Positions 3,031 to 21,660 of a stretch of DNA of 64,000 bases are shown here, piece by piece. The notes beneath the pieces are model-generated. The model searched no databases. It was not told where the DNA came from and worked only from the letters and a program-made list of their open reading frames with translations. The first letter of the stretch is position 1, and each line of letters starts with the position of its first letter. Position numbers and translations under genes: made by a program. The stretch lies in IMG/VR virus record IMGVR_UViG_3300044796_000401; one strand, 5' to 3'. Source of the stretch: a virus. Taxonomy: Duplodnaviria; Caudoviricetes.

Positions 3031-4545
3031 ATGGCATACAGCGTTAAGGTTCTCGATCACTTTCAGTACCCCAGAAACGTAGGAAGTCTCGACAAGACTT
3101 CAGTAGATGTTGGCACTGGCTTGGTGGGAGCCCCCGAGTGTTTTTCCGGTTCCACCCTCATCGCCACGGCGGACGGGTCCAATCAAAGGGCTTTGGCGGA
3201 ATTATACGCTGAGGGCCAGGACATTCCCGTTTGGTCCTTTAACATAGCCAAAAAACAGTTCGAAATCAATATGGGGAGAGCGGTGTGCACGGGTGAGAAG
3301 CCTGTGGATTCGGTTACATTAGACGACGGCTCAACCCTAGAAGTTACGGCAGACCACGAATTTCTAACTCGTCCGGACTACAAATATATTGCCAACGGCG
3401 AAATCAAAGACGAGTCCATACGACCTTTCAAGCGTTATGTATCGAAGCGGGGGTATTGGCGCATACGAGACTCCAAAGAAAACGATCAATATCGCTCCAT
3501 ATTCAAGTTTTTTACGGGGGCCACTTCTATGCGGGGGTTCAACATCCACCACAAGAATCTAGACAAGCGTAACGACTCCCCCAATAATCTGAAGTTGTTA
3601 ACCATCGGGGAACGCATAAAAGAACATCGTCCTTCGCCGAAGAAGTCCACCGGCCGTCAGATTTTTGACAGGCTTAATTTGGGTGACAACGACATTGTCC
3701 GCATTTCCAAGCTGCTCAAGGATAAAACACGACAAGAAGTGGCTGATGAACTCGGAGTTTTTGTTGACGAGTTTTATGTTGTCTTGCGTGTACTGGGGCT
3801 GGGAAGAGTCAGGAGAATTAACACCCCAGTGGAGTGCTGCGAATTAAGCAGCATTAGAATGAAGAAAGACAATCCGTATCACAAGTTCACCTCAGAGCAA
3901 AAACAGATATTCGCCACCCACGAAGGAAGCTCCAACGGGCGTTGGAAAAACTCCGGCAATGAGGCGCTATTACAAGCGGCAAAGAAAATTTTAGACGAAA
4001 ACGGCAAATTCACCGCAGCCCTTTGGCGAGAAAAGGCCCACAGTTTGGGACTTCCTCAAGACATCAAATCTCGTTTCAAATCGTTAAACGAGTTTCACAG
4101 GCAGGCTGTAGAATTCAACCACAAAATTAAAAATCGTGAAGTTTTGGGAGTCGTTCCAACCTTTACCCTACAGGTGGAAGGCAACAACAACTATGTTGTG
4201 ATTACGAAGATGACTAAAAACTCCCAATGTGGTATTGTTGTGAGGAACTGCGGCGACGTGATGAAGCTCCAGATCAAAGTCAACAAGGAAACGGGTGTCA
4301 TCGAAGAGGCCAAGTTCAAATGCTTTGGGTGTGGATCGGCCATCGCCAGCTCTTCCCTCGCCACCGAATGGGTCAAAGGCCGCACTGTGGATGAGGCCCT
4401 CACGATCAAGAACACCGATATCGTGCGCGAGCTAAACTTGCCTCCGGTGAAAATCCATTGTTCTGTCCTTGCACAGGATGCGATTGCCGCCGCCGTCACC
4501 GACTGGAAGCGGAAACAAGAAAGTTTCCTGAAAGACGGTATTTGA
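3031..4545 (+). CDS. iscU: Fe-S scaffold IscU/NifU-N interrupted by an intein
   Basis: Exteins MAYSVKVLDHF..PRNVGSLD...GLVGAPE | CGDVMKLQIKV...GCGSAIASSS...LPPVKIHCSVLA reconstitute a ~134-aa IscU. Confidence 0.93.
   Translation: MAYSVKVLDHFQYPRNVGSLDKTSVDVGTGLVGAPECFSGSTLIATADGSNQRALAELYAEGQDIPVWSFNIAKKQFEINMGRAVCTGEKPVDSVTLDDGSTLEVTADHEFLTRPDYKYIANGEIKDESIRPFKRYVSKRGYWRIRDSKENDQYRSIFKFFTGATSMRGFNIHHKNLDKRNDSPNNLKLLTIGERIKEHRPSPKKSTGRQIFDRLNLGDNDIVRISKLLKDKTRQEVADELGVFVDEFYVVLRVLGLGRVRRINTPVECCELSSIRMKKDNPYHKFTSEQKQIFATHEGSSNGRWKNSGNEALLQAAKKILDENGKFTAALWREKAHSLGLPQDIKSRFKSLNEFHRQAVEFNHKIKNREVLGVVPTFTLQVEGNNNYVVITKMTKNSQCGIVVRNCGDVMKLQIKVNKETGVIEEAKFKCFGCGSAIASSSLATEWVKGRTVDEALTIKNTDIVRELNLPPVKIHCSVLAQDAIAAAVTDWKRKQESFLKDGI
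3139..4248 (+). mobile_element. Intein (370 aa) with an HNH-type homing endonuclease in iscU
   Basis: Starts CFSGSTLIATADG, ends ...GIVVRN followed by Cys+1; internal IHHKNLDKRNDSPNNL HNH motif. Confidence 0.88.
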
Positions 4546-12991: not shown

Positions 12992-13847
12992 GGGAATTAT
13001 CCCTTTGAGTCCACACCCAGCAGGATTAGGACTAGGACGAAAGCAAATGCTTAAGCTGCACCATCACCGTCGGAATATCCTCCATGCCACAAAGCGCAAG
13101 GCAGAAAATGCCAGTATCGTCCATGTAAACCCGCATCTGCTCCGCCAACCCGGCGGCATCGCCGTCATCCGCCTTGACCTCAATGGCGACTAGGGCCTTC
13201 CCTTTTCCGACAACAACATCCATAAACTTGCCGCTCGGTGTCTTGACATTGTGGCGGATTTTCGCTTCAGGAATCTCCGTCCGAATATGGTGGTGGAATT
13301 CCGCCTCCACATCCCGCTCAGTGATATGAGCAAAGTCAATAGCGTACTCCAATTCCCGCTCAACCTCACCCTCCTCAGAATCCTTTTCTGCCGGGTTATG
13401 GGACTGTTTAGCCGTCTCTCTCCCCTCCTCCTCGGACAAAGTGCAACCCATGTCCAGAGATTTCTGGGTCAGCCCCCACTGCCCATACTCCAGTGCAGGT
13501 CTTGTCGAACGATTATCAACATAGCCGGACTTCTTTAGCCGTGTGAGTGCCCAAGCTAGGTCATAATCCAACCCAAACTTGTGACTTTTGTTTGGGGAGG
13601 GCTTAGACAGTTCTTCCGTTGAAAATTTTTTGTGCGTTTGAAAGTAGTCAAAAATAGCGAAGCGAGTAGCGGTGCCTCCGAGTTCTCGAAGGGCACTAAG
13701 TGTTGGATTAAGCAACCGCGTCTCTATCGTATCAGTCATCATTTTCCTCTATCCGTAGTATACAGCCGAGGAGGGATTTTAGCTAGCTGTATTGTGTTGA
13801 AAACAAGCTAGTTATGAGATATTTGTGGACTCAAAGGGATAATTCCC
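12992..13847 (-). mobile_element. Non-autonomous IS1595-type cassette carrying an Mrr-like gene
   Basis: Perfect 23-bp inverted repeats GGGAATTATCCCTTTGAGTCCAC; no transposase; internal TAGCTA-17-TATACT promoter. Confidence 0.88.
13032..13742 (-). CDS. Mrr N-terminal domain plus PD-(D/E)XK-like nuclease
   Basis: LSALRELGG...LAWALTRLKKSGYVDN...GQWGLT resembles Mrr_N; C-terminal MDVVV...AIEVKA motif. Confidence 0.7.
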   Translation of the reverse strand: MMTDTIETRLLNPTLSALRELGGTATRFAIFDYFQTHKKFSTEELSKPSPNKSHKFGLDYDLAWALTRLKKSGYVDNRSTRPALEYGQWGLTQKSLDMGCTLSEEEGRETAKQSHNPAEKDSEEGEVERELEYAIDFAHITERDVEAEFHHHIRTEIPEAKIRHNVKTPSGKFMDVVVGKGKALVAIEVKADDGDAAGLAEQMRVYMDDTGIFCLALCGMEDIPTVMVQLKHLLSS

Positions 13848-14337
13848 TTATTTATGCCTATGCTCCTGCAACAATCAAACGGAGGTTACTAGTGGCAGTT
13901 TGCTAAATGGGAGAACGAAAAGTTGCGGATGCATTCAGCGTCAAAGCGCCTCAGAAACAGCGATAAAATCGCGTAAAAGACCGTATGAAGCGTTTTACAA
14001 CCAACTGATGCGCAACGCAAAGAAGAGAAATCTGGTAGTTGACATTTTATATGAAGCCTTTCTTGAGTACACAAAACAGCCTAACTGCCATTATTGTACC
14101 GACCCAGTAATGTGGGTTGAATACAGGGAACAAAACACGAGAGGCTCCAAAGTGGGGCGCTGTGGTTATCATTTAGACCGTAAAGATAGTAGCCTTGGTT
14201 ATTTGAAAGCGAATGTTGTTGTGGCATGTGCTCGCTGCAATTGGAGTAAATCAGATCGGTTTTCATACGAAGAGTGGTTTGTTATGACCGCTCCGTTAAG
14301 GTTCAAGGGGAATCCCACCCCATCGAACCAGCGCTGA
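13848..14337 (+). pseudogene. C-terminal half of the split HNH endonuclease
   Basis: YLCLCSC...LLNGRTKSCGC...CHYC...LDRKDSSLGYLKANVVVACARCN; starts at the TIR with TTATTTAT. Confidence 0.8.
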
Positions 14338-14423
14338 GGATTTCTTGGCGGTGGATCGTTACAGAAATCAGCAATTTGTTGCTGCGGCTAGCTAAAATTC
14401 CCTGGCTCGTGTATACTAGGAAT

Positions 14424-15032
14424 ATGGAGCCTCTCGAATTAGCGATCATTAAGGCCGTCCAAGCCCATGCCGGACAGCGTGACGCTGACGGCTCCCTCCA
14501 CATCGCCCACTGTATCTCAGTCATGGTGCTCAGCCAAAAGGAGGCCTACGAGAAGTGTCCTAGCGGTGTATCAGTTGAAGACCTCCAGTGTGCCGCCATA
14601 CTGCATGATACCATCGAAGATAGCGGCACAACCTTGGAAGAAATTTGCGCCGAGTTCGGCGATATAGTAGCGAACACGGTGGATGCTTTGTCCCACCGCA
14701 AGGGAGAATCCTACCGGGACTACATCTACCGCTGCAAATCCGATCCCGCCGCCCGGCTCATCAAGATTTGCGACCTGCTGCACAACATGAGCCGCACGCA
14801 CAAAGTCAGCGCCAAGAAAGCAAGCTGGCGGGAAAAGCTGGAATATAAATACCGCATTGCCTCGCTGGTGCTCAACGGCAAGTGGGAGCCCACGTGGGAG
14901 GGAGCGTCCTATGAGGTCCGCTACGAGGATGCCACCGCACGGTTCTACATCGCCGACCCCGACGGCAAAGAAATCGAGATCACCGAGAAGGAAGCGAAAA
15001 ATGTCAAGGCCAGCTTTAAGATCAGCAATTGA
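14424..15032 (+). CDS. HD-domain hydrolase (RelA/SpoT hydrolase, Mesh1-like)
   Basis: AH.GQRD...HI.H, AAILHDTIEDS, V.ALSH, IKICDLLHN motifs; leaderless start 6 nt after TATACT. Confidence 0.8.
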   Translation: MEPLELAIIKAVQAHAGQRDADGSLHIAHCISVMVLSQKEAYEKCPSGVSVEDLQCAAILHDTIEDSGTTLEEICAEFGDIVANTVDALSHRKGESYRDYIYRCKSDPAARLIKICDLLHNMSRTHKVSAKKASWREKLEYKYRIASLVLNGKWEPTWEGASYEVRYEDATARFYIADPDGKEIEITEKEAKNVKASFKISN

Positions 15033-15320
15033 CTGGTGCTACAGGAAGAGGATTATCACCATCCTTGTGCTGCTCCTCACTCTGCTGTTCGCGCTTTTCG
15101 CCACGGCTTCGGGGCTGGTTATCTGCCCGGAGCACGGCGTCAAGTCGGCCTTCACGGGCAACAGGCAGGTGGTCTTCAACGGCTCCAAGCGTCACGATTA
15201 TTGCGAGTACAGTCACGTTCTTCGTGATTTATCTGGCACTCACAAGTTTTGGTCCGACTGCGAATAAATTCGTTTGACTCTCCGCCCCTCGTCCCTTAAA
15301 CTTGTAGGGGATGGGAACAA

Positions 15321-15650
15321 ATGATCGCCGAGTTCCTCAAGCTCGTGTTCCTGAGCATCGCCTGCGGGGCGATCAGCATGACGATCTCGAAGTCCGTGGC
15401 GTTCGCGCCCCTGCGCAGGCGGGTCAAGGCCCGGAGCGCCTTCCTCGGCGGGGGGCTGGCATGCCCCTACTGCACGAGCCATTGGGTGGCGCTCGCCTTG
15501 ATGCTTATTTACTTTCCACGACCGCTGCATTGTGGTATTACTGTCATTGACTTCCTTGTCGGGACCATGATGGTCGTCGCTCTGGCGTCGGCGACAGCAT
15601 GGATGATCTATTCCGCCTACGCGGCTATGGCAGCCCCGGAGGAGCAATGA
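15321..15650 (+). CDS. DUF1360-like membrane protein
   Basis: GLACPYCTSHWVA motif between TM helices. Confidence 0.6.
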   Translation: MIAEFLKLVFLSIACGAISMTISKSVAFAPLRRRVKARSAFLGGGLACPYCTSHWVALALMLIYFPRPLHCGITVIDFLVGTMMVVALASATAWMIYSAYAAMAAPEEQ

Positions 15651-15820
15651 CCGCCAAAGACAAGAAACTGCTCGCCGTATTCCTGTTTACCCTCGTTGCA
15701 GGCGCAACTGCCGCTGTGCAGATCGCCCACCATAACTGGGGCGGGCTGTTCATGACGGCGGCCGCCGCCGTATGGTGCATTCTGTATGCGCAGCATGTGG
15801 ACGACTGGGAGGTCAAATGA
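15647..15820 (+). CDS. Small two-TM protein
   Basis: MTAKDKKLL...; ATGA overlaps at both ends. Confidence 0.5.
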   Translation: MTAKDKKLLAVFLFTLVAGATAAVQIAHHNWGGLFMTAAAAVWCILYAQHVDDWEVK

Positions 15821-17001
15821 ACGTTCAGCAGCAGATAGTCGATCTCAACGCCCGGCTCAGGGAAGCGAGCGAGGCGTACTACAAGAAGAACCAGCCCATC
15901 ACGCCGGATGCGGACTTCGACGCGCTGGAGCGCCAGCTAAGGGATTTGGTCGAGCGGCACCCGGAATTCGCCGAGTACGCGCCCATGCTTTCCTCGGTCG
16001 GCAGCGATCTCAGTGGTGGCCGTATTCCACATGCCCGACCGATGTTGTCCATCGAAAACAAATACGACAAGAATGAGATCGTTGAATTCTTTCGGTCTTT
16101 GCCGAGCCCCAGAGCGATTTTAGAAGAGCCAAAACGCGACGGCATCAGTGCTTGCCTCAGTTTCAAAAACGGCAAATTGGCAAGGGCTCTTTCCCGCGGG
16201 GACGGACAGGCCGGGGAAGACATGACGGCACAGTTTAACGCGCTGAAGAACGTTCCCAAGGAACTATTCGGCTACGGTGTCTCCTTTGTTCCCCCCAAGC
16301 CGCCCATCAATCTTTGTGTATGCGGCGAGCTTGTCATGCGGAAAACGGAACTGGATCGCATCAACGGGGCTGCCCGTGCCGGGAGCGGGAAAGAATACAC
16401 CAGTACGAGGAATCTGGTGGCGGGGACAATGAAACAGAAAAACTTACCCGTGGTCGCTTCCCGCGACATTCGGTTCATTCCGTGGGACGTATATTCGCCC
16501 GACCAAGATGACAAGCTTCCAGACAGCGCCTACGACCGCATGAAGCTGCTTGAAAAAATGGGACTCCCAGGCTTTGACGGCACGCTAGTTACGAAAGAGG
16601 ATCGAATCATTGAAGTGCTGAATGAAATCCTCCTGTTTAATGAAAAATCGGACATTGCGGCGGATGGCGTAGTTGCCAAAGTGGACAGTCACGAACTTCG
16701 CCGAGAATTGGGGATCGGCAGCAAATTTACAAACTGGATGTGCTGTTTCAAGCCTCAGAATTTGGCGGCAATTACCCGTCTTCGGAACGTTATTTGGCAA
16801 ACTGGAAGGGGCGGAAAAGTCACACCGGTGGGGATTGTCGATCCAGTGACGCTCGGCGGGGCCGTGGTGACGAGAGTTACTTTGAACAACCTTAGCTGGA
16901 TTCGCAGCATGAATTTGAAGATCAACAGCCGCATAAAACTTGTAAGAAGCGGGGATGTAATTCCCATGGTTGCGGAGAACTTGGACGGCAAAGAGATTTG
17001 A
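15817..17001 (+). CDS. ligA: NAD-dependent DNA ligase, N-terminal part (adenylation and OB-fold domains)
   Basis: YY...P...DADFDAL, H.RPMLSI, EPKRDG (KxDG), SRGDG..GED, DGVVAK, WQTGRGGKVTPV, RSGDVIP; stops just after the OB fold. Confidence 0.93.
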   Translation: MNVQQQIVDLNARLREASEAYYKKNQPITPDADFDALERQLRDLVERHPEFAEYAPMLSSVGSDLSGGRIPHARPMLSIENKYDKNEIVEFFRSLPSPRAILEEPKRDGISACLSFKNGKLARALSRGDGQAGEDMTAQFNALKNVPKELFGYGVSFVPPKPPINLCVCGELVMRKTELDRINGAARAGSGKEYTSTRNLVAGTMKQKNLPVVASRDIRFIPWDVYSPDQDDKLPDSAYDRMKLLEKMGLPGFDGTLVTKEDRIIEVLNEILLFNEKSDIAADGVVAKVDSHELRRELGIGSKFTNWMCCFKPQNLAAITRLRNVIWQTGRGGKVTPVGIVDPVTLGGAVVTRVTLNNLSWIRSMNLKINSRIKLVRSGDVIPMVAENLDGKEI

Positions 17002-17019
17002 TGTACAATAGACGAATGT

Positions 17020-17102
17020 GGTGGGATTTGGTAAGGTCAGGTACGGCTGGGTTAGGTTTGGTAAGGTATGGGGCGCATGTGCGGAGCATTCCGTACATGC
17101 GC
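17020..17102 (+). ncRNA. GGY-NN pentamer repeat array with a 3' hairpin (VIPR-like guide RNA candidate)
   Basis: Eight consecutive perfect units GGTAA GGTCA GGTAC GGCTG GGTTA GGTTT GGTAA GGTAT (17030-17069) with degenerate flanking units; hairpin GCGCATGT-GCGGA-GCAT-TCCGT-ACATGCGC (17073-17102); TACAAT -10 box at 17004. Confidence 0.75.
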
Positions 17103-17122
17103 CAGTATAAAGAGAGGAGTAC

Positions 17123-17782
17123 ATGGGAGTATCAGCTAAAGCGGCTAAAGAACGGCCTTTGACAGATGTAACGACGCCTACGAACGGAGCGGAAGGCACT
17201 ATTGGCATTGAGGAACCGTATACCGCAGAGACGACCATCCAAGGAACAGCCGATCTGCTTTTCCACGGTTGGAATGTGGAAGCGATTGAAGAAAAATCTA
17301 AGGCTTCTAAGGGTTCGGAAGCGAAGAAGACCGACAACATTGAAACTTATGTTCTTCGTGACAATGACGGATTCATTTGTCTTCCTTCGGAATATCTTCG
17401 GATGTCCATTGTCAACGCTGCCCGGCGCAAGCAGGACCCGAGTTCCCCCCGCAAATCAGCATATGATCCGTTCAAGGCAAGCGTCATAGCCTTGGAACCA
17501 CTAGTTCCCACTATAAACGCCAAGGGCGAAAAAACGAAAGAGTGGGATTTTGCCCACAAATGCCGGGTTCAAGTGCAACGCAGCGGGATTGCTCGTTGCC
17601 GCCCAGCGTTTCACAAAGGATGGAGGGCGACAGTTCAATTAATGGTCATGACGCCCGAATACATCTCGCAGGATTTGCTTCACGATGTTGCCGAAAAGGC
17701 GGGACGGTTAAACGGTGTGGGCGACTACCGTCCCACACATGGACGATTCCGCATCGTCCGTTGGGAGATCGCTAATGCCTGA
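17123..17782 (+). CDS. Stand-alone Cas7-like/RAMP-fold protein (Vipr-like)
   Basis: N-terminal TIQGTADLLFHGW strand, GFICLPSEYLRMSIVNAA, and C-terminal Gly-rich loop AGRLNGVGDYRPTHGRF; AGAGGAG Shine-Dalgarno. Confidence 0.75.
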   Translation: MGVSAKAAKERPLTDVTTPTNGAEGTIGIEEPYTAETTIQGTADLLFHGWNVEAIEEKSKASKGSEAKKTDNIETYVLRDNDGFICLPSEYLRMSIVNAARRKQDPSSPRKSAYDPFKASVIALEPLVPTINAKGEKTKEWDFAHKCRVQVQRSGIARCRPAFHKGWRATVQLMVMTPEYISQDLLHDVAEKAGRLNGVGDYRPTHGRFRIVRWEIANA

Positions 17783-18665
17783 TTTGGTGGAAATCGTTCC
17801 CCCATTCGATTGTCCGGAATGCCGCACCCCTCTCGAAGAGTCGGACGAAGGGGGTGCTGGCATTCTTATTCACTGTTGTCCCAACGCGAGGTGTCCTGGC
17901 CGGATTCGGGGCACCTTGACTTTCATCGGCAGCCGTGAAATTTTGGAAATTGATAACCTGGGACCGGAATCCGCAACCTCACTGATCAAGTTTGGTGTTC
18001 ACGATCTCGGAGAACTGTATACTTTCCAGTCAGAGGCCCTAACCAGCGCTGCGGTTTCCGGTGAAGAGGCCTTCGTCGAACACATGCGGAAGGCTGGGTT
18101 CGACATTACGATCCTCAAGCTGGTCAAGTCCTTGGAGCGGGCTAAAACCGCTTCTTGGGGGCGCTGGATCGCAGCAATGGGCATTCCCATGATCGGTCGC
18201 ACCCTCGGTAAGCCGATTGCCACCGCGCTTGACCTCGGACCCGAAGATATGGCAAACTTGCCGGGCAAGCTGCTCCTTTTGCCGAAGCTGGGCGTTGAAG
18301 GACTGGGAGAAGCGAAGCTCGGTTCCATTTGCGAATGGGCCAACGATCCCAGCAACCAAAAAATGTGCTATACTCTATACGAAAGGGGAATCAGACCTAT
18401 GTCAGTGGAAAAACCGAAAGCCTCCGCCCCATTGAGCGGAGTTATATTTTGTATTACGGGAGCCTTCGTGGAAGGTCGTGATTCGATAACGAAAAAGCTG
18501 GAGAGCCTTGGTGCTGTAGCGAAATCCAGCGTTAGCAAGAAAATCAACCTTCTAATCGTGGGGGACGACGCGGGCAGCAAGCTCGACAAAGCCAAATCCC
18601 TCGGCATTCGAACCGTAGGCGGAGACTGGCTGGCCAAGACGCTAGCGGAGAACGGACTCGCGTGA
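17775..18665 (+). CDS. ligA: NAD-dependent DNA ligase, C-terminal part (Zn finger, HhH, BRCT)
   Basis: CPEC...CPNARCP, EIDNLGP, GIPMIGRT, GLGE, and BRCT FCITG...SVSKKINLLIVGDDAGSKLDKA..LGI. Confidence 0.92.
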   Translation: MPDLVEIVPPFDCPECRTPLEESDEGGAGILIHCCPNARCPGRIRGTLTFIGSREILEIDNLGPESATSLIKFGVHDLGELYTFQSEALTSAAVSGEEAFVEHMRKAGFDITILKLVKSLERAKTASWGRWIAAMGIPMIGRTLGKPIATALDLGPEDMANLPGKLLLLPKLGVEGLGEAKLGSICEWANDPSNQKMCYTLYERGIRPMSVEKPKASAPLSGVIFCITGAFVEGRDSITKKLESLGAVAKSSVSKKINLLIVGDDAGSKLDKAKSLGIRTVGGDWLAKTLAENGLA

Positions 18666-18865
18666 CAATCGAAACCAAACCCGTGATGCGCGCTCTTGTG
18701 TGGAACGAAGGCGAGGAGCCGGAGAAGCTCCTTTACTCGTGCGGAGAGTGCGCCTTTGCTACGTCCGATCCGCGGCGGGCATCGGATCACGAGTCATGCC
18801 ATGGCAAGTTTTACTTCGGGCAACGCTCCCACCACCGCGAATGCCCTTGGAGGAAATTACGATGA
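18662..18865 (+). CDS. Small Cys/His protein
   Basis: CGEC...H...H motif; GTGA overlap. Confidence 0.45.
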   Translation: MTIETKPVMRALVWNEGEEPEKLLYSCGECAFATSDPRRASDHESCHGKFYFGQRSHHRECPWRKLR

Positions 18866-19191
18866 CACAGCACGGACAGAGCTTGCTTGACCGCGTCATG
18901 AAATGGGCGCAATTTCTCAGCGTCATGGGCGCGCTTATCGCCGGATCGACGCACTACCTTTCGACATTCGCGAAGTACCGCGACATGGCGAATGCTAACG
19001 CGTACAAGATCGAGCGTATGGAGCGATACCTCGCATTCAAAAACCCCGAGTACTGGCAGGTGGTTGGAGGCCTCATCCAGCCGGGCGAACCCGACGTTTA
19101 TCAGGTGAAGTCCCGCAAGGCGCTGTCGCAGCAGGAGCTTGAAAAGCTCAAGCAGGACGTAGCGCCCAGCGCGCCGCAAACCAAGAAGTGA
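18862..19191 (+). CDS. Hypothetical membrane-anchored protein
   Basis: ATG after GGAGGA; one TM helix. Confidence 0.55.
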   Translation: MTQHGQSLLDRVMKWAQFLSVMGALIAGSTHYLSTFAKYRDMANANAYKIERMERYLAFKNPEYWQVVGGLIQPGEPDVYQVKSRKALSQQELEKLKQDVAPSAPQTKK

Positions 19192-19438
19192 GGTGCCCAT
19201 GATTCCCTTTATCGCCGCCGCAGTCGGGCTTTCGGTCATCGCATGGTTTTGCTGGATCGCGACAAAACCGAGGAAGCAACGGTTCTAGGGGGCGATTCCT
19301 AGCCAAAATCCCCCCGGCGCTGTATACCATGCGTGTGCCTGATCGGCGAAATCGCTGGCAGGACAAGCTTTGCCGGTGCCGTACGCTGCATCGGGAACTT
19401 CGACCCGAGCCCGCTGAGATGCGGGCGAGGAGATTGAG

Positions 19439-19990
19439 ATGGCGATGAAACCCAACCCGCATCCCGAGTGGCTCAAGGAAATGATCCACGGCTACTCTGA
19501 CTACCAGACGTGGCGTCTGCTGATCGAGGGCGCGAACTTCGCCGTCGTGCAAACGCCCGGCGGAAGGTGGGGCGACAACAGCGGGACGCACTACGGGAAG
19601 ATGAGCTACTACCTCGTGGACAAGCGCAGCGATCCCCGCCACGGGCACGGCATGGAGTACTGGAAGGAACTGAAGCACGGCGGACGCATCGGGGCAAAGA
19701 CCAAGCGGGAGTGGAAGGCCCTCGTGGACAAGTCCGACAAGCTGGACACATTCGTCACAGGCAAGGAAGACGAGGAACTGGTGCTTGAGACCGTCGTGGA
19801 CCGGATTGCGGTCTACTTGGAGACGCAGCGGAATGAAAGCGAGAAGATGCGGACAGGGAAGCGGGACCCCCACGGTTACAGCACCGACTATTGGGCGGGG
19901 CACGTCAACGCCTTCAATTGCACATTGAAAAAGCTGAAAGAGCTTGTGCCGAATCCACTCAAGGAGGAGACCGAGGAGGAAAAGCAATGA
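19439..19990 (+). CDS. Hypothetical protein
   Basis: 183-aa ORF with GAGGAG Shine-Dalgarno, downstream of a TAGCCA promoter. Confidence 0.65.
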   Translation: MAMKPNPHPEWLKEMIHGYSDYQTWRLLIEGANFAVVQTPGGRWGDNSGTHYGKMSYYLVDKRSDPRHGHGMEYWKELKHGGRIGAKTKREWKALVDKSDKLDTFVTGKEDEELVLETVVDRIAVYLETQRNESEKMRTGKRDPHGYSTDYWAGHVNAFNCTLKKLKELVPNPLKEETEEEKQ

Positions 19991-21198: not shown

Positions 21199-21660
21199 AT
21201 GGGACGAAATCGAACGCCACAAGCGATACTCGATGCACGCGGAAGTTTCATCGCAAACCCGCGCTTGAAAAGAGATGACGGAACGGAGCACTCAAAGCCG
21301 CTCGGTTCTGCGCCAAAACACATGACGGAAACAGACGCCGCAATGTGGCGCGAACTGAAGAAGGATTTGCTACCCGGCGTTGCGAAGAAAAGTGACCGAC
21401 ACGCTTTTGAAACACTGGTGCTCCTGAAGGTGCGCGAAAGGTCAGGAATATTTCTGGCCGCCGACCGTGGGCAGATGATAACCCTGCTTTCTCATTTCGG
21501 AATGACACCAGCATCGCGCACAAAAGTTGCGATGCCTGCCGCACCGAAGTCTTCGTTGTCTGACTTCCTTAAGAAGAGCAGACCCGCGCCCGCACCTGCA
21601 CCTTCGCCAGAGCCGGACGAAGTTGACCTGATGCCTGCTGACCCGACGCGCCTGAATTAA
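21199..21660 (+). CDS. Terminase small subunit, P27 family
   Basis: MGRNRTP...L..RG...NP, AP......W.EL, FGMTPASR.KV pattern. Confidence 0.75.
   Translation: MGRNRTPQAILDARGSFIANPRLKRDDGTEHSKPLGSAPKHMTETDAAMWRELKKDLLPGVAKKSDRHAFETLVLLKVRERSGIFLAADRGQMITLLSHFGMTPASRTKVAMPAAPKSSLSDFLKKSRPAPAPAPSPEPDEVDLMPADPTRLN

Follow-up and report, generated by a model that had tools for sequence, protein, structure and literature searches.

A VIPR cassette in the linker of a split phage DNA ligase gene, with a guide that fits ligase alleles of related phages

The 64,000-nt stretch of tailed-phage DNA analysed here (IMG/VR record IMGVR_UViG_3300044796_000401; hereafter, the window) carries an NAD-dependent DNA ligase gene, ligA, that is divided into two open reading frames (ORFs), ligN and ligC. 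Judged by its sequence, the 773-bp insert that separates them, in the linker between the OB and Zn-finger domains, is a complete minimal VIPR system consisting of one vrRNA, a tail hairpin and a vipr gene, and its guide matches ligA alleles of related phages better than the ligA of the carrier itself. Under our best explanation, ligN and ligC together make up a functional ligase, the linker serves as a permissive slot, the VIPR system targets rival ligA, and the cassette is inherited together with a resistant ligA segment; we put the probability of this explanation, taken as a whole, at about 0.6. Split ligases as a kind are already known, and so are VIPR systems, from preprints of 2026. What is new is a VIPR cassette in an endonuclease-type slot of a split essential gene and a guide that matches rival alleles of the very gene hosting the cassette, at a catalytic motif close to the insertion.

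VIPR systems were described in three preprints (10.64898/2026.04.26.720920, 10.64898/2026.04.26.720927 and 10.64898/2026.10.15.759431). According to the main text of the first (10.64898/2026.04.26.720920), Vipr is a minimal phage-encoded RAMP protein that covers a vrRNA composed of GGY/NN repeats. Pairing with double-stranded DNA is through the NN dinucleotides, every third base being skipped; the skipped base falls mostly on codon wobble positions, and competing mobile elements are repressed by the complex. VIPR of this type is reported there to bind and repress, not to cut, and the accompanying vap genes vary, with loci 'typically' holding one (10.64898/2026.04.26.720920). The natural targets given in the main texts of the preprints, which deal with enterobacterial and Pseudomonas phages, are satellites, prophage regulators and other VIPR loci.

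A minimal VIPR system between the ligase genes

The guide tract of the vrRNA (Table 1) has the NN series GG TT AA CA AC TG TA TT AA AT. The hairpin in its tail has an RNA fold z-score of -3.95, with none of 200 shuffles folding as well, and hairpins are visible at the corresponding place in several homologous loci. The locus thus shows two features of VIPR, 9-16 tandem GGY/NN units on the strand of the gene and a structured 3' tail. A sigma-70-like site ahead of the repeats agrees at 9 of 12 positions; two such sites occur in the region versus a shuffle mean of 2.1, which is not above chance.

The product of the gene that follows the vrRNA has no Pfam match, and its sole PHROG match is phrog_4652 ('unknown function'). 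The protein belongs to a large and well conserved family, which has 116 members at 45-65% identity among the collected proteins and 369 confirmed stretches in IMG/VR. An AlphaFold2 model derived from 42 sequences (predicted local distance difference test score, pLDDT, 86) retrieved, as top Foldseek matches, Csm3/Cas7 subunits of type III and type VII effector complexes (E = 5.6e-7). Cas7-type RAMPs likewise occupy the top of the VIA-align list, with Z of 10.5-9.3 to Cmr/Csm3/type VII Cas7 (best root-mean-square deviation 3.6, 156 positions aligned). Profile comparison by hhalign relates the family to a 195-aa ORF of Escherichia phage phiSUSP1 (probability 97.9%, E = 3.3e-13), and the C-terminal motif GVGD(W/Y)RPxxGRF is common to both. 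We take this ORF as the published Vipr, given the GGYNN arrays that flank it and the locus description in the preprint. On fold prediction and profile homology, the 219-aa protein of the window, a minimal RAMP, is a member of the Vipr family, which is defined by an RRM core, a G-loop and a thumb. An upstream GGYNN array stands beside the homologous gene in most of 80 viral loci; a simple array caller recovered 125 arrays, of which 122 lie on the strand of the gene, in 62 of 81 loci. A sequence-only reading of the window, made without database searches, had labelled the insert a RAMP/array module, and both labels are real in view of the fold matches, the profile homology and the conservation of the array. 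The gene after vipr is ligC.

Among GenBank phages, only DSL-LC04 (OR003939.1; locus L001, 3986-4603) has a tblastn match to the Vipr of the window, at 49% identity. The homologue is annotated as a 'helix-turn-helix transcriptional regulator' and has three GGYNN arrays just upstream (3697-3949); the annotation is probably wrong. Read in this way, phrog_4652 and a GenBank 'helix-turn-helix transcriptional regulator' both become Vipr proteins. The phiSUSP1 locus (KT454805.2; L167, 27892-30611), with arrays at 29226-29172 and 27966-27892 and ORFs of 195 and 146 aa, lies directly downstream of an ATP-dependent DNA ligase gene (PF01068), and the presence of VIPR beside a ligase gene in two unrelated phages may be a coincidence. 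Some long GGYNN arrays near vipr are open in one frame (e.g. L041/L042 5644-5871 and L016 4625-5023). Such in-frame arrays look like spurious 'ORFs' rich in Trp, Gly and Arg (...WRGRVRTGLFWQGWAWHG...) and are a trap for gene callers.

Table 1. Features of the window, with those of the ligase locus first and those of its surroundings last
Feature	Position	Strand	Remarks
ligN, N-terminal chain of NAD-dependent DNA ligase (Ia, adenylation/NTase, OB), 394 aa	15817-17001	+	Pfam, PHROGs, alignment
Carrier's own ligA site for the guide, codons FTNWMCCFKP (motif V)	16726-16754	-	score 12/20; homologous to the target in relatives
Sigma-70-like hexamers TGGACG and TACAAT, 16-nt spacer	16982-17009	+	weak; ends 8-11 nt before the repeats
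vrRNA guide tract, 10 tandem 5-nt GGYNN units (9 conforming)	17020-17069	+	sole such array in the 64-kb window
vrRNA 3' tail, 14-bp hairpin with 4-nt loop	17072-17103	+	inverted repeat
vipr, 219-aa Cas7/Csm3-fold RAMP protein	17123-17782	+	preceded by strong ribosome-binding site GAGAGGAG
ligC, C-terminal chain (Zn finger, HhH, BRCT), 296 aa	17775-18665	+	Pfam, PHROGs, alignment
ORF with weak Mrr_N match	13032-13742	-	below Pfam cut-off; upstream of ligA
Endonuclease VII/HNH-like ORF	13900-14337	+	phrog_1035, E = 1e-15; upstream of ligA
HD phosphohydrolase gene	14274-15032	+	upstream of ligA
Small terminase subunit gene	starts at 21199		

The linker is a recurrent slot for cargo

GenBank phages, IMG/VR and JGI metagenomes supplied 55 additional members of the ligA clade of the window, which together with the window make 56 rows, three of them duplicates of an already listed contig. 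Both ligase parts are present in 42 rows, whereas in 7 the locus lacks ligC and another 7 do not extend over the site. Among the 42 two-part rows, ligA is fused in 31 and split in 11. All split forms break in one linker, between RSGDVIP..V.. and ..I(V/L)PP..CP(E/D)C, and the break point is identical in the window and eight other split loci. The cargo differs from locus to locus: a minus-strand DUF7487 ORF (E = 1e-45 to 1e-52; 'homing endonuclease' in PHROG) in L085/L130/L143, L089 and L091, a 294-aa unknown ORF in L092, small unknown ORFs in L134 and L147, and seven genes in Tunturiibacter phage Tunturi_5. In L140, ligA is split and the gap is empty. Furthermore, GIY-YIG endonuclease genes are found at a second ligA boundary, between the Ia and adenylation domains, in L084 and L091.

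In a quick maximum-likelihood IQ-TREE tree of the adenylation-OB part (filtered for coverage and at least 40% identity; L092, L094, L095 and partial loci left out, three identical rows merged), split alleles fall in at least six places, each beside fused alleles. Because splits recur in at least six places of the tree and hold varied cargo, the OB/Zn-finger linker is a slot in which selfish or accessory cargo is repeatedly lodged and tolerated. The likening of the locus to genes split by free-standing homing endonucleases, made in the sequence-only reading, fits this picture, with relatives carrying DUF7487 ORFs at the linker and GIY-YIG genes at the Ia/adenylation boundary. Contrary to what that reading had implied, the module is not a necessary cause of the split, given that the gap holds other cargo in at least six other lineages.

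The order of events could also have been different: the split may have arisen first, through a homing endonuclease or another event, with VIPR replacing the cargo later in a gap that had become an ordinary intergenic one, so that the position of the cassette would be uninformative on how VIPR moves. Besides the splits with different cargo in those other lineages, once cargo-free (L140), this scenario is favoured by T5-like phages, which retain the split with only about 200 nt between the halves. The VIPR cassettes of the family also occur in many contexts; none of 80 viral loci is near ligA, and the upstream and downstream neighbours of Vipr loci fall into more than 40 clusters each. Conversely, the window groups in the tree with L123 and L124 (Shimodaira-Hasegawa-like approximate likelihood ratio test, SH-aLRT, 97) and then with six NYQVC alleles, and L123, L124 and the next clade are fused. 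In addition, the 773-bp insert contains no endonuclease remnant, and the gene in which the cassette resides is the one that the guide matches. On balance, we give a split that preceded VIPR a little under an even chance.

In the IMG/VR contig L084 (2367-5158), from a related phage, ligA is fused at the OB/Zn-finger linker; instead, a minus-strand homing endonuclease gene of the GIY-YIG/NUMOD3 type separates a 96-aa ORF for Ia from a 594-aa ORF for the remainder of the ligase. Its identity to the window is mosaic (76% in Ia, 50% in adenylation-OB and 73% in the C-part), which suggests that the middle ligA segment was exchanged by recombination.

The guide fits motif V of ligA in related phages

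We scored the guide by the published 1-nt-skip rule over 10 units, corresponding to 20 informative bases; the first of 11 initial units had been excluded by the GGYNN caller. The best matches in relatives lie repeatedly in ligA, on the antisense strand, over the codons x-x-N-Y-Q-V-C-F-K-P, which encode motif V with its conserved lysine. Within each codon, a guide dinucleotide covers positions 1-2, and position 3 (wobble) is the base skipped. The site is covered by 49 ligA rows, of which 10 score 17/20 (L085, L125, L126, L128-L132, L140 and L143), 2 score 16/20 (L093 and L137) and 7, with NYQIC and NWQVC alleles, score 15/20. In the alleles scoring 16 and 17, units 1-8 match at 16/16. The main texts of the VIPR preprints set the target threshold at 0.8 identity; by the published scoring, the ligA of relatives reaches 0.80-0.85 versus 0.60 for the carrier's own site, located 248 bp upstream of the insert. 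In the nine-row clade of the window, the other eight rows all have Q-V where the window has M-C. There is no self-target, the best score anywhere in the window being 14/20, and with other skip lengths the best block amounts to 12-13/16, which is background.

The sequence-only reading had suggested that the module may spread by acting against relatives with an intact ligA and that their alleles be searched for the gapped target. The search yielded the matches of 16-17/20 at the motif V codons, and action against the ligA of relatives is in this respect backed by the sequence match, whereas spread was not seen. The intact junction is not the target, as the matched codons lie upstream of it, and the targeted alleles are not only intact ones: they include the split L085, L130, L140 and L143.

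Alternatively, the match could be due to chance or reflect a conserved codon pattern, and the vrRNA could in reality be aimed at an unsampled competitor, a satellite or the host. The 16/16 block, a statistic picked after the match had been seen, was found with none of 2000 control guides (0/1000 unit-order shuffles and 0/1000 random guides, over 11 loci). Of 51 de-duplicated loci, 11 score at least 16 with the real guide. When its informative bases were shuffled 1000 times, no shuffle yielded more than 6 such loci, and 2 yielded five or more. The signal is, moreover, confined to the published skip-1 rule and the wobble phase, and ligA had been named as the gene to test before any search. In view of these controls we consider this alternative unlikely.

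Several observations nevertheless weigh against our best explanation. No ligA allele exceeds 17/20, and this top score is reached by 31 of 1000 shuffled guides. The two 3'-most units (AA and AT), beside the tail, match no ligA allele seen; since protomers and pairing build up from the 3' side according to the main text of the cryo-electron microscopy preprint on VIPR, the motif V sites may be poor targets. Of the 26 occurrences of the 16-base core across IMG/VR, 2 are in ligA and 24 outside it, some of the latter at 18/20; the case for ligA therefore depends on its prior standing as the gene to test. Scores of 18/20 are found in a 231-aa ORF with an LLGDG motif (L097, L107 and L114, site at about 1501-1529), which, read by eye, encodes a putative LAGLIDADG-type endonuclease. 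Sites of the N-W-M-x-C type are also present in the VIPR-less ligA alleles L127, L133, L135, L091 and L149, and the carrier's own site therefore need not be an escape that followed the arrival of the cassette. A tblastn search of the window with phiSUSP1 vap1 and the DSL-LC04 downstream ORF revealed no vap gene (best E = 2.5). No insert-free allele, spliced form or recombinant was seen in the contigs of four runs, in which rare forms can be missed. Finally, ligase is diffusible, so that in a mixed infection a rival phage may lose little through repression of its ligA.

In the L097/L107/L114 match, nine units are perfect and in codon phase, the contigs being AT-rich, and about 1-2 such matches are expected by chance among the 26 core matches. 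The exact 22-base target pattern of the 11-unit parse has no match in IMG/VR. A Vipr homologue is present in none of the four records searched among those with targeted ligA alleles, a result of little weight given that three of the four are 28-60% complete.

Across the Vipr family, guides were obtained from 62 of the 81 loci; 10 match other loci at 18/20 or better (88 pairs), compared with 6 guides (9 pairs) for unit-order shuffles. The guides of L068/L070, L074, L052, L080 and L024 match conserved sites in many loci at 18-19/20, and these sites lie inside vipr, in genes about 400 nt upstream and in genes about 1 kb downstream. The matches fit the vrRNAs aimed at rival VIPR loci that are reported in the main text of the October 2026 preprint (10.64898/2026.10.15.759431). 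We claim no enrichment near the cassette, because the scanned set consists of vipr neighbourhoods only.

Two chains with a complete set of ligase domains

The domain set of LigA is complete over the two chains, with Ia, KxDG adenylation and OB domains followed by the Cys4 Zn finger, HhH and BRCT. It is not encoded as a single polypeptide: a stop at 16999-17001 is followed by the insert (17002-17774) and by a new ATG at 17775, in another frame. ligN matches PF22745 (Nlig-Ia), PF01653 (DNA_ligase_aden, E = 7e-43) and PF03120 (DNA_ligase_OB), as well as phrog_3869 and phrog_3359, and aligns onto residues 3-388 of Escherichia coli LigA. Its start, MNVQQQ, resembles MNVRQQ of the relative L084, and its C-terminal end is ...RSGDVIPMVAENLDGKEI. 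The start codon of ligC lies inside AATGCCTGA, overlapping the stop of vipr, 7 nt downstream of a Shine-Dalgarno-like GGGAG, and the N-terminus of its product, MPDLVEIVPPFDCPEC, is the Zn finger. The product aligns onto residues 403-661 of T. filiformis LigA and matches Pfam BRCT (E = 3e-12; HhH_2 is under the cut-off), phrog_3869 at positions 392-652 and phrog_3498.

The residues that are invariant in 14 relatives are all kept, namely, K106 (KxDG), E171, K288 and K312 in ligN and the Zn-finger Cys13/16/35/40 in ligC. K106, in EPKRDG, lines up with motif I of E. coli LigA, and the invariant set includes the lysines of motifs IV and V. At the junction, no ligase residues are lost or duplicated beyond 1-3 linker residues, and fused relatives are continuous through the linker (L084, ...RSGEVIPLITRVLPESELAMGLIEIVSPLNCPEC; also L123-L125). 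Neither terminal inverted repeats nor a target-site duplication are present at the insert ends 17002 and 17774. An Rfam scan of 15000-19500 returned no intron family, the single match being a sub-threshold small nucleolar RNA (E = 0.75). The sequence-only reading of the gene structure stands on all these points: an N-part that ends right after the OB fold, as the ORF, Pfam and the E. coli LigA alignment agree; a C-part with its own ATG that overlaps the RAMP stop and begins at the Zn finger; two open halves with their catalytic motifs; and no terminal inverted repeat, target-site duplication or intron core.

By analogy with the two-chain ligases of T5-like phages (see below), the further proposal that ligN and ligC act together as a working two-chain ligase is plausible. 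It is very unlikely that the insertion destroyed ligA and left two non-functional pieces, with ligation supplied by a host or other phage ligase. Both ORFs (394 and 296 codons) are open and have kept the invariant residues, ligC has its own ATG, Shine-Dalgarno-like sequence and stop-start overlap, the same arrangement recurs across the runs of several studies with few base differences, and two-chain ligases of such kind exist. Excision of the insert at the RNA or protein level, as an intron or intein, to give a single-chain ligase is extremely improbable, as Rfam finds no intron, the insert has its own ribosome-binding site and ORF and is flanked by a stop and a start in different frames, the fold of Vipr is that of a RAMP and not Hint, and RNA-library contigs, which may miss rare forms, are colinear over both junctions without joints.

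The loop side of the vrRNA tail hairpin (17086-17097) is complementary at 11 of 12 positions to the ligC codons for the first Zn-finger cysteines (17811-17822). We discarded this complementarity as being at chance level, about one such 12-nt pair being expected in this 1-kb stretch.

A possible mode of action

In the mechanism that we propose, ligN and ligC would both be translated, ligC by coupling to the vipr stop, and would act jointly on nicked DNA, as in T5-like phages. The linker would provide a permissive slot in which the cassette sits, and the cassette may have taken over an endonuclease-type slot. The vrRNA would derive from the ligN transcript or from the weak sigma-70-like site, and Vipr protomers would coat its GGY motifs to form a filament that reads double-stranded DNA by the 1-nt-skip rule. 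This filament would bind the motif V codons (N-Y-Q-V-C-F-K-P) of rival ligA, leading to repression or a roadblock, whereas the carrier's own ligA (N-W-M-C-C-F-K-P) would escape. We hold the two-chain function, the permissive slot and the filament targeting of rival ligA with moderate to good confidence. Because the resistant ligA segment and the cassette are only 248 bp apart, they would be inherited together; that this co-inheritance favours the cassette in mixed infections is only a hypothesis. The linkage of site and cassette would resemble that by which free-standing endonucleases spread, although the ORF is without a nuclease and no spread was seen.

A bolder version would be an RNA-guided, nuclease-free 'homing by exclusion', in which VIPR stalls the transcription or replication of the rival genome during mixed infections and only recombinants with the carrier's ligA segment escape. 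The cassette, co-inherited with the nearby resistant segment, would then spread like a homing endonuclease with no cutting of DNA. We regard this version as quite doubtful; if it is true, the slot is a site contested by two kinds of selfish element.

The case is that of an environmental phage, from peat and pond, with a single guide that would be aimed at an essential replication gene of its kin, at a catalytic motif where escape is costly. The linkage of cassette and target raises the question of whether a binding-only RNA-guided system can act as a selfish, drive-like element. Furthermore, the OB/Zn-finger linker of LigA offers a natural example of a site that tolerates splitting and varied cargo, which is useful for the design of split enzymes.

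Genomic context and source phage

The DNA around the ligase locus is phage-like, with all long ORFs between about 13.9 and 23 kb on the plus strand. Upstream of ligA, around 13.5-14.2 kb, the GC content falls to 0.41-0.45, and the Mrr_N-like, endonuclease VII/HNH-like and HD genes (Table 1) may constitute another mobile or defence-related patch. The source phage is uncultured and known from peat and pond metagenomes. The records with related ligA alleles (G001-G004, for L084, L085, L093 and L086) are large, their sizes including 187 kb (about 60% complete) and 300 kb (complete, with terminal repeats), and the closest cultured relative, Tunturi_5, has 309 kb; the probable source of the window is accordingly a jumbo phage that infects bacteria of soil or peat.

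The split arrangement is identical in runs from several studies, the most divergent run having 7 base differences in 3.1 kb. Contigs of four runs (four studies, one RNA library) match the window colinearly, without any joint, over both junctions; the comparison used contigs, from which rare variants drop out. The contigs from the RNA library span 16819-17173, a coverage that is no proof of transcription.

Comparison with known split ligases, homing endonucleases and VIPR systems

The closest parallel for the split itself is found in T5-like phages (Demerecviridae), in which adjacent genes for ligase 'subunit A' and 'subunit B' have the same OB/Zn-finger break as the window. The PDB entries 9hu3 and 9i5i contain both chains; chain A (339 aa) aligns to ligN 14-389, and chain B (248 aa) matches the BRCT region of ligC. 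Entry 9hu3, checked by its molecule names only, is presumably from T5. In Salmonella phage bombadil, a 323-aa subunit A gene is followed by a 259-aa subunit B gene, and the halves are about 200 nt apart without a gene between them, whereas those of the window are 773 bp apart and enclose a VIPR system. The sequence similarity is low, with ligN only 26-27% identical to the T5-like chains. In PHROGs, the ligase halves have separate families, 3359 and 3498. Our literature searches found no paper that joins a split NAD+-dependent DNA ligase, a homing endonuclease and a phage, nothing relevant on T5 LigB and no paper for PDB 9hu3.

Free-standing homing endonuclease genes are known to split phage genes and to undergo 'intronless homing' (T4 seg and mob genes). 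The locus studied here resembles them in that a selfish cassette occupies a permissive linker within a conserved gene, with a recognised site that is found in cassette-free alleles near the insertion and differs in the carrier, the recognition being in our case a sequence match only. The difference lies in the ORF, which has a RAMP fold and matches no nuclease family in Pfam or PHROGs. Because VIPR is reported, in the main text of the preprint (10.64898/2026.04.26.720920), to bind and repress and not to cut, the break-and-repair route would not be available to the cassette as such.

With regard to VIPR, the words 'ligase', 'homing' and 'interrupt' are absent from the main texts of 10.64898/2026.04.26.720920 and 10.64898/2026.10.15.759431, the supplements of which may differ; 'ligase' is also absent from the main text of 10.64898/2026.04.26.720927, the supplement of which may list such cases. 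The system of the window shares with those described in the main texts a minimal RAMP, 9-16 GGYNN units, a structured 3' tail and its encoding by a phage, as well as a guide that fits coding DNA with the skip on the wobble position, would be directed at competitors and has a low self-match. It departs from them in having a single vrRNA and no recognised vap gene, and, above all, in that its cassette lies inside a split essential gene and has, as its best target, rival alleles of that same gene.

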